Part shown: positions 8,422-8,543 of the stretch, piece by piece
Numbering within the stretch: the first letter of the stretch is position 1
Layout: each line of letters starts with the position of its first letter
Assembly: GCA_016284875.1 (NCBI GenBank)
Contig: JAEEPS010000004.1
Location: 11,785 to 75,784 of the forward strand
Source of the DNA: Salinivirgaceae bacterium
GTDB lineage: Bacteria; Bacteroidota; Bacteroidia; Bacteroidales; SZUA-534
Direction of reading: 5' to 3'
DNA: 64,000 bases
Translations under genes and position numbers: made by a program
The notes under the pieces: model-generated
What the model was told of the DNA's origin: nothing
Seen by the model: only the letters and a program-made list of their open reading frames with translations
The model's database searches: none

Positions 8422-8532
8422 CTATCCCAAAATTTTGTTCATCAGTTCGGTTTCGCGCGCGCCTAACTCTTTGAGGTGGGCGAAGATATTGTCGCTCGAC
8501 TCCAAAGGCACGTATTTGTATTTTGTAGCCAT
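8422..8532 (-). pseudogene. 36-codon chimeric relic: hsdS start (MATKYK) fused to the hsdM C-terminus
   Basis: The minus-strand translation is MATKYKYVPLESSDNIFAHLKELGARETELMNKILG-stop. Its first 6 codons equal the hsdS start. The remainder equals the HsdM tail YKYVPLESSDNIFAHLKELEAKETELMNKILGK. Confidence 0.65.
8465..8520. repeat. 56-nt perfect direct repeat, copy 1 (hsdM 3' coding sequence)
   Basis: The sequence aactctttgaggtgggcgaagatattgtcgctcgactccaaaggcacgtatttgta is identical to 9715-9770. Imperfect similarity continues to about 8424 and 9671 respectively. Confidence 0.9.
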
Positions 8533-8543
8533 AGTTTCAGTCC
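8515..8543. repeat. 29-nt perfect direct repeat, copy 2
   Basis: It is identical to 7547-7575. It spans the stop of the DUF1016 gene and the start of the chimeric relic. Confidence 0.9.

Follow-up and report, generated by a model that had tools for sequence, protein, structure and literature searches.

The DNA stretch analysed here (hereafter the window) covers 64,000 nucleotides (nt) of contig JAEEPS010000004.1 from an uncultured gut or rumen Salinivirgaceae bacterium (order Bacteroidales; assembly GCA_016284875.1, positions 11,785 to 75,784) and contains a type I restriction-modification operon with several genes embedded among hsdM, hsdS and hsdR. Between two of these cargo genes, one coding for a DUF1016/YhcG nuclease-family protein and the other for a protein of 281 amino acids (aa), lies a 36-codon open reading frame (ORF) that joins the beginning of hsdS to the end of an hsdM. 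This relic is probably the non-functional scar of a single illegitimate, microhomology-mediated insertion of 939 nt, which would have brought the 281-aa gene from a related operon. Two exact repeats that overlap within the relic delimit its left joint. The inserted tract is nearly identical to a foreign allele, while the flanking genes are not, and the junction in front of hsdS is of the resident type.

The relic and its repeats

The relic and the hsd genes lie on the minus strand and are read from high to low coordinates. The parts that bear on the scar are, in coding order:

9669 to 11477, minus strand: hsdM, resident and intact, 602 aa (Pfam N6_Mtase and HsdM_N; PADLOC MTase_I, E 3e-214)
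9715 to 9770, minus strand: partner copy of the 56-nt repeat, within the intact resident hsdM (exact match)
8537 to 9664, minus strand: DUF1016/YhcG nuclease-family cargo gene (Pfam YhcG_C, E 7e-52, and DUF1016_N, E 1.2e-30; PADLOC candidate PDC-S02, E 1.4e-131)
8515 to 8543, minus strand: junction J, left copy (GGACTGAAACT ATGGCTACAAAATACAAA), an exact repeat and the native DUF1016-to-hsdS junction: last DUF1016 codon and stop, 4-nt spacer, hsdS codons 1 to 6
8422 to 8532, minus strand: 36-codon chimeric relic ORF; codons 1 to 6 are the duplicated hsdS start, codons 7 to 36 and the stop a foreign (L006-type) hsdM 3' end
8465 to 8520, minus strand: relic part of the 56-nt repeat, identical to the resident hsdM segment
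8515 to 8520, minus strand: left joint, the 6-nt microhomology TACAAA (in-frame Tyr-Lys in both parents), where the exact repeats overlap and the resident hsdS start meets the donor hsdM 3' end
7576 to 8514, minus strand: apparently donor-derived insert of 939 nt, colinear with locus L006: 93 nt of hsdM 3' end including the stop, 7-nt spacer, 281-aa gene up to its last two codons
7569 to 8414, minus strand: 281-aa cargo gene, PD-(D/E)XK-like, REase-ARP family PF22558, slightly under the curated cutoff (Pfam E 4.5e-6)
7547 to 7575, minus strand: junction J, right copy, an exact repeat of resident type: last codon and stop of the 281-aa gene, spacer, start of the intact hsdS
6308 to 7564, minus strand: hsdS, resident and intact, 418 aa (Pfam Methylase_S; PADLOC Specificity_I, E 3.6e-89, residues 3 to 417)

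The relic translates to MATKYKYVPLESSDNIFAHLKELGARETELMNKILG, followed by a stop. Its first six codons (MATKYK) are those of hsdS, and they are joined to the last 30 codons of an HsdM. The window's own HsdM has a different C-terminus, with LKELEAKETELMNKILGK before the stop. The sequence-only reading of the window had described the relic as MATKYK fused to this resident C-terminus. Its hybrid nature stands, but the tail is not the resident one: the distal 43 nt of the relic (8422-8464) are identical to resident hsdM (9672-9714) at 30 of 43 positions, and the tail belongs to the allele type of the related locus L006, described below.

String comparison and a repeat search agree on two exact repeats. 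Positions 8465-8520 are identical to 9715-9770 over 56 nt, and 8515-8543 to 7547-7575 over 29 nt. Both identities had been proposed before and are borne out by self-comparison of the window, in which neither match can be extended at either end. Each word occurs twice in the 64 kb and has no occurrence on the opposite strand; exact matches of this length cannot be due to chance. The repeats overlap in the relic at 8515-8520 (TTTGTA, or TACAAA on the coding strand). The microhomology is thus exactly 6 nt, shorter than the TACAAA(A)TAC first proposed, with mismatches on both sides in both parents. The probability of at least 6 nt of microhomology at a random joint is about 0.0013. Both parents read TACAAA as Tyr-Lys in one and the same frame, which keeps the fusion in frame.

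Such repeats could also mislead an assembler into threading together two co-occurring loci. In the four runs of the source study, Logan contigs (k=31) indeed break at the repeats and do not bridge 8494-8516, at a coverage of about 3-7x; all run-level checks used Logan assembled contigs. An assembly artefact nevertheless has hardly any likelihood, because independent assemblies agree and separate contigs cross the relic and the right junction. Over 13 kb, the sequence is 100% identical to that of GCA_016295205.1 and GCA_016295295.1, GCA_016648415.1 is 99.95% identical over 9.2 kb, and the fourth assembly, GCA_016648615.1, compared by gene order and not by DNA, has the same arrangement. A contig from a different, unrelated study (run X5) covers 8314-8561 with the whole relic and its junction-specific words; it has three differing letters at unreported positions, and its adjacent DUF1016 3' part differs by about 5%. 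Another contig (run X3) spans the right junction, from 6900 to 7601. Furthermore, both repeats are below normal read lengths, the source runs contain no L006-type hsdM body, and the loose contig ends at 8465 and 8520 belong to the window's own hsdM.

Origin of the foreign tract

Our survey comprised 80 loci whose HsdM is related to that of the window; nearly all carry a Bacteroidales label, and most come from rumen and gut metagenome-assembled genomes. From TACAAA through the 7-nt spacer to the start of the 281-aa gene, the window is 100% identical to the hsdM 3' end region of L006. The BLAST homology between the two begins precisely at 8520, and the tract from 8520 to 7609 holds two mismatches in 912 nt (99.8% identity). 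At 7608, 7601 and 7596 the window differs from L006 and carries the allele of L012; from 7575 onward, identity to the donor type collapses. The flanking genes are much less similar to those of L006, with 85.8-86.6% identity in hsdM, 93.7% in the PDDEXK_4 gene and 85% in hsdR. Consequently, the relic tail is a foreign, L006-type hsdM allele that was carried in with the 281-aa gene.

A tandem duplication within a single locus, by unequal sister-strand exchange at TACAAA, would also produce identical 29-nt copies and the in-frame MATKYK/YVPLE fusion, with one cargo copy later replaced by homologous exchange. The foreign origin of the relic's hsdM tail, which matches L006 throughout and the resident gene only in part, leaves this a very slim chance; moreover, two events are needed, and the replacement would be bounded by very short homology.

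Both parental arrangements predicted from the window exist in public data, and the predicted origin from two different type I loci is supported. The order hsdM, 281-aa gene, hsdS is found in L006 and L008 (281-aa protein 99% identical), L012 and L013 (91%) and L016-L019 (67%). The order DUF1016, junction, hsdS is found in L100, where a DUF1016 gene of 93% identity is followed by GGACTGAAACTATGGCTACAAAATATAAAGAC (the junction with one mismatch) and an intact hsdS. Contigs in runs X6 and X8, whose letters were read as far as 8515, are consistent with it. In the X6 contig, alignment covers the DUF1016 3' end with the junction, breaks off for 494 nt and resumes in the conserved centre of hsdS, as would be expected if the DUF1016 gene there precedes an hsdS that differs in its first recognition domain. 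The X8 contig extends 198 nt beyond the junction. In the window, as the earlier reading held, the event has stacked two cargo genes: DUF1016 and the 281-aa gene now share one slot.

The right joint is located at TTTTTT/GGAC, the slash marking the break; according to the allele of the donor, the microhomology there amounts to 0-3 nt. In codon register, there is none with the L006/L012-type gene end (TTCGAT) and 3 nt (GGA) with the L025/L016/L100-type end (TTGGAT or CTGGAT). By chance, at least 3 nt are expected at a joint with a probability of 0.05, and at least 2 nt with 0.16.

Genes of the 281-aa family (L006-L015, L016, L025 and the 274-aa gene of L100) end in ...TT(C/G)GATTAG AC(T/A), directly followed by the start of the next gene. 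In all six sampled lineages the junction of this type reads ...TT(C/G)GATTAGAC(T/A)ATGG and leads into the locus's own hsdS start, mostly GCAGCAAC(C/A)AAATATAAAGAC; in L006-L015 and L025, the next gene is an hsdS starting with ATGGCAGCAAC(C/A)AAATATAAAGAC (MAATKYKDS). The window instead has ...TTG GAC TGA AACT ATGGCTACAAAATACAAAGAC, which is the DUF1016 type. As all sampled 281-aa loci carry a different junction at this place, the right copy of J (7547-7575) is resident and not of donor type. Donor-type sequence stops at TTTTTT/GGAC, and the adjoining junction and hsdS 5' region, which are alike in the parents, are wholly of recipient type in the window. The recipient has 29 nt duplicated (J at 8515-8543 and 7547-7575) and none lost.

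These boundaries bear on the model first proposed for the window, a single unequal crossover at TACAAA between complete hsdM-DUF1016-hsdS and hsdM-281aa-hsdS loci, with everything downstream of 8520 contributed by the second. The left joint and the two parental orders agree with it, and it accounts for the 29-nt duplication if that junction was common to both parents. However, near-identity to the L006-type donor ends at about 7609-7576, the junction between the 281-aa gene and hsdS is of the DUF1016 type, unlike that of the six sampled 281-aa lineages, and identity to L006 falls from 99.8% in the patch to 85-94% in the downstream genes. Given this break at the junction and the lack of donor likeness beyond it, the model requires an unsampled donor or a second recombination exactly there. 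We therefore regard it as unlikely, though it is the alternative to which we give the most weight.

Probable mode of insertion and fate of the scar

For the insertion that we favour, the recipient would have had the order hsdM, DUF1016, hsdS, PDDEXK_4, DarTG, hsdR, with the DUF1016 gene and hsdS joined by GGACTGAAACTATGGCTACAAAATACAAA, and the donor the L006-like order hsdM, 281-aa gene, hsdS. A 939-nt piece of the donor, consisting of the last 93 nt of its hsdM, the spacer of 7 nt and all but the last two codons of the 281-aa gene, would have entered the junction between DUF1016 and hsdS. The left joint would form at TACAAA, where hsdS codons 5 and 6 (Tyr-Lys) meet donor hsdM at ...FYKYV..., and the right joint at TTTTTT/GGAC. 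On the recipient, the position of the right joint is upstream of that of the left, which accounts for the 29 nt of recipient junction on both sides of the insert. As judged from the sequence of the product, the most probable route would be a double template switch or microhomology-mediated repair. Alternatively, a variant of homology-facilitated illegitimate recombination might have acted, anchored in the similar hsdS 5' region and using DNA taken up from a related strain.

Several points weigh against such an insertion. The process, be it template switching, end joining or homology-facilitated illegitimate recombination, is read from its product. At the right joint, the microhomology is 0 or 3 nt according to the donor allele. 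The near-identity to L006 could partly reflect later gene conversion onto an older scar, and one unequal crossover would be enough if the 29-nt junction was already present in an unsampled donor. Classical homology-facilitated illegitimate recombination usually removes DNA of the recipient and does not duplicate it. Finally, look-ups and metagenome scans did not uncover the exact recipient, a locus with the same hsdM, DUF1016 and hsdS but lacking the insert: the only exact matches to the window's HsdS protein and to the 36-aa relic were in the same stacked contigs, the 29-nt junction had no match in the JGI metagenome contigs that were scanned, and in an HsdS-based metagenome scan the best relatives reached 55% identity, with none close at the DNA level.

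The sequence-only reading had gone further and seen a modular swap that uses conserved hsd gene ends as homology arms. This does not agree with joints of 6 nt and 0-3 nt around a 939-nt patch that carries no donor hsdS: a gene is added and nothing is swapped. Exact runs between the hsdM genes of the window and L006 measure 65, 62 (holding the 56-mer), 50, 47 and 46 nt. Given comparable runs of 46-65 nt elsewhere between the alleles, the 56-nt identity represents ordinary conservation of hsdM. In ten relatives, the 3' end of hsdM is not more conserved than the rest of the gene, as a homology arm would be.

Two other kinds of system were considered and rejected. A transposon or integron-like cassette does not match the absence of a recombinase or transposase among the genes called or annotated by Pfam in the operon and immediately upstream of it, nor the absence of inverted repeats bounding the insert; pre-hsdS junctions vary among 70 related loci, and the relic occurs in one lineage. 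An hsdS shufflon does not match direct repeats, a duplicated fragment derived from hsdM and the presence of one hsdS in the window.

The relic ORF begins 4 nt after the DUF1016 stop, in the native start context of hsdS, and ends 7 nt before the start of the 281-aa gene, as a native hsdM stop does. With these native contexts retained, the tight gene-to-gene chain of the operon is kept, and the arrangement suggests that the scar may preserve translational coupling. The scar itself is probably non-functional.

A deletion between the two 29-nt copies would remove 968 bp and restore hsdM-DUF1016-hsdS. A deletion between the 56-nt copies would remove 1250 bp and yield an intact hybrid hsdM followed by the 281-aa gene and hsdS. 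It is conceivable, if rather doubtful, that the stacked state is a reversible intermediate in a turnover of embedded defence genes by 'insert, then resolve', in which an illegitimate insertion first brings in a cargo gene with part of the donor's hsdM end and the resulting direct repeats then permit the precise loss of either cargo. Joints that skip 1250 bp in runs X6 and X7 were considered as deletion derivatives and rejected: they carry L006 single-nucleotide polymorphisms at 7608, 7797 and 7927 and come from independent L006-type loci.

More speculative is the idea of an expressed 36-aa HsdM-tail peptide with an influence on methyltransferase assembly or on translational coupling. In its strongest form, which is compatible with an origin as a scar, the relic would be a selected small protein whose presumably helical HsdM C-terminal tail modulates methyltransferase assembly or relays translation from DUF1016 to the 281-aa gene. 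The in-frame fusion and its native start and stop contexts would suit such a role, and no differences in the relic are reported in X5, though the DUF1016 3' part differs there by about 5%. Yet the frame follows automatically from an in-frame TACAAA, the relic is found in one lineage only, the sole RNA run holds 5% of the sampled words, and conservation cannot be informative for so recent an event; we thus find selection on the peptide highly improbable. PDB sequence matches to HsdM stop short of the C-terminal tail.

Embedded genes in this operon and its relatives

Downstream of hsdS, the operon continues as follows:

5016 to 6311, minus strand: PDDEXK_4 gene (PF14281; PADLOC candidate PDC-S26)
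4209 to 4847, minus strand: DarT (Pfam/PADLOC match)
3140 to 4252, minus strand: DarG (Pfam/PADLOC match)
103 to 3120, minus strand: hsdR, 1005 aa (Pfam/PADLOC match)

The intact hsdM, hsdS and hsdR share one strand, and their Pfam and PADLOC matches span essentially the full 602-, 418- and 1005-aa proteins. No second type I locus and no further hsdS occur in the window, and no minus-strand terminator was found between hsdM and hsdS. The non-hsd genes are nested on the same strand, and DUF1016, PDDEXK_4, DarT and DarG match known or candidate defence families. Three of them (DUF1016, the 281-aa gene and PDDEXK_4) are nuclease-fold cargo genes. The 281-aa protein has no PADLOC match, only a weak REase-ARP match (26.9 bits, cutoff 27). 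It has 210 homologues at E <= 0.001, and many of the best 120 of these 210 carry a precomputed PF22558 match; the gene lies between hsdM and hsdS in each relative whose context was examined.

The start of the PDDEXK_4 gene, of the PD-(D/E)XK nuclease family, overlaps the hsdS stop as ATGA; L006 also has a PDDEXK_4 gene, with 88% aa identity. The DarT/DarG pair, an ADP-ribosyltransferase toxin acting on single-stranded DNA and its macrodomain antitoxin, sits between PDDEXK_4 and hsdR (3140-4847), where L006-type relatives have an unrelated gene of about 213-219 aa. Directly upstream of hsdM on the same strand (11606-12542) are a DUF3791 and DUF3990 pair (PADLOC candidate PDC-M13) and a 75-aa ORF. 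The GC content of the cargo genes is 0.40-0.48, against 0.52-0.54 in hsdM and hsdR; between 4001 and 8000 it is 0.40-0.42 in the 281-aa gene, PDDEXK_4, DarT and hsdS. This contrast with the flanks fits separate origins of the embedded genes.

The DUF1016 gene contains two copies of a 27-nt palindrome (AATTGGGGCAA..TTGCCCCAATT) at 9272-9298 and 9339-9365, 67 nt apart, which are read in two frames as IGATPLPQL and NWGNAVATIQL. At the DNA level, L023, L072 and L078 have one of the copies conserved in their DUF1016 genes, and L100 has a looser match limited to the stem. In a contig of run X7, the copies are separated by another filler, 38 nt long.

In roughly half of the surveyed loci that reach hsdS, the slot between hsdM and hsdS is empty; the others usually hold one cargo gene, of kinds that include DUF1016, REase-ARP-like, Fic/DOC, Schlafen-AlbA_2, AAA_14/DUF4143 and HTH-M78. 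A second variable slot lies between hsdS and hsdR. Stacked cargo is rare, and several cases are untidy: in L023 an N-terminal fragment of one DUF1016 gene precedes a second, different one, and L061 and L072 have broken DUF1016 genes. No extra HsdM C-terminus was found outside the window among about 90 related loci. L100 has a stack in the opposite order (4220-6175: hsdM, 274-aa REase-ARP-like gene, DUF1016, hsdS), in which the genes are 2-4 nt apart and no relic is present; the ENA sample from which it derives also contains the single-cargo locus L007. The 312-aa REase-ARP-like cargo of L025 (11745-12683) has an internal tandem repeat (…ALWLELSEHE…, four times) that its relatives are without. 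An extra half-length hsdS, 81% identical to that of the window, follows the full hsdS about 11850-12570 nt downstream of hsdM in L024 and about 2489 nt downstream of it in L078; it might supply material for a shuffling of specificity.

Genes embedded in type I operons are well documented, for PrrC, for TgvAB of Vibrio cholerae VPI-2 (PMC11411939) and in the 'guilt by embedding' survey of Payne et al. 2024 (bioRxiv 10.1101/2024.01.29.577857). The window resembles these cases in its same-strand cargo between hsd genes, which includes the candidates PDC-S02 (DUF1016) and PDC-S26 (PDDEXK_4) and the known defence system DarTG. It differs in having a junction scar that documents one arrival and two cargo genes in one slot, which is uncommon in our survey. 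The preprint of Payne et al. is seemingly silent on how embedded genes arrive, as the words 'recombination' and 'acquired' do not turn up in a term search of it.

The nearest mechanistic analogue is the displacement model proposed for effector-immunity modules of Rhs, contact-dependent inhibition (CDI) and type VI secretion systems. There, according to Kirchberger et al. 2017 (PMC5361080), C-terminal displacement and orphan arrays are proposed to arise by homology-facilitated illegitimate recombination. The likeness lies in a module from a related locus set beside a conserved gene, an older module that is kept, a stranded 3' fragment as a fossil, and conserved sequence on one side with an illegitimate joint on the other. 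Unlike in those arrays, the stranded fragment in the window is the end of the incoming donor hsdM, nothing is displaced or truncated, and the junction is duplicated and not deleted.

Homology-facilitated illegitimate recombination is known from transformable bacteria (de Vries & Wackernagel 2002, Prudhomme et al. 2002 and Meier & Wackernagel 2003, as cited in PMC5361080; also PMC3240628). The window shares with it the addition of foreign DNA next to a region of similarity and a joint within the microhomology range of 3-10 nt (6 nt here). It departs from it by lacking a clear right-hand donor anchor tract and by a 29-nt duplication in place of the usual deletion.

Microhomology-mediated template-switch insertions are also known, as events of the type of fork stalling and template switching (FoSTeS) or microhomology-mediated break-induced replication (MMBIR). 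As in these, a second, related locus has been copied contiguously into the insert, the left joint has a short microhomology, and the target is duplicated around the insert; in contrast to them, the right microhomology is weak or uncertain (0-3 nt) and the evidence is the product. To our knowledge, the template-switch process has not been shown in Bacteroidales.

Phase-variable type I systems with hsdS shufflons rely on inverted repeats, spare hsdS halves and a recombinase (e.g. PMC7394358 and PMC7672463). They share with the window the presence of repeated hsd gene fragments within a type I locus. In the window, however, the repeats are direct, the fragment is from hsdM, and no recombinase is found among the operon genes or their immediate upstream neighbours.

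Type I operons now serve as bait for the discovery of phage-defence genes by 'guilt by embedding'. As a single event in an uncultured organism, the scar is an illustrative case and not a new principle. It would nonetheless offer a dated, base-resolved example of how a sub-kilobase fragment of a related operon adds a cargo gene by microhomology-mediated illegitimate joining. Such an addition would have needed no recombinase and left all hsd genes and the resident cargo intact. If the stacked state is indeed an intermediate, its resolution would regenerate clean single-cargo operons, as in most relatives, and if this is general, 'insert, then resolve' would explain the exchange of embedded genes without mobile-element machinery.

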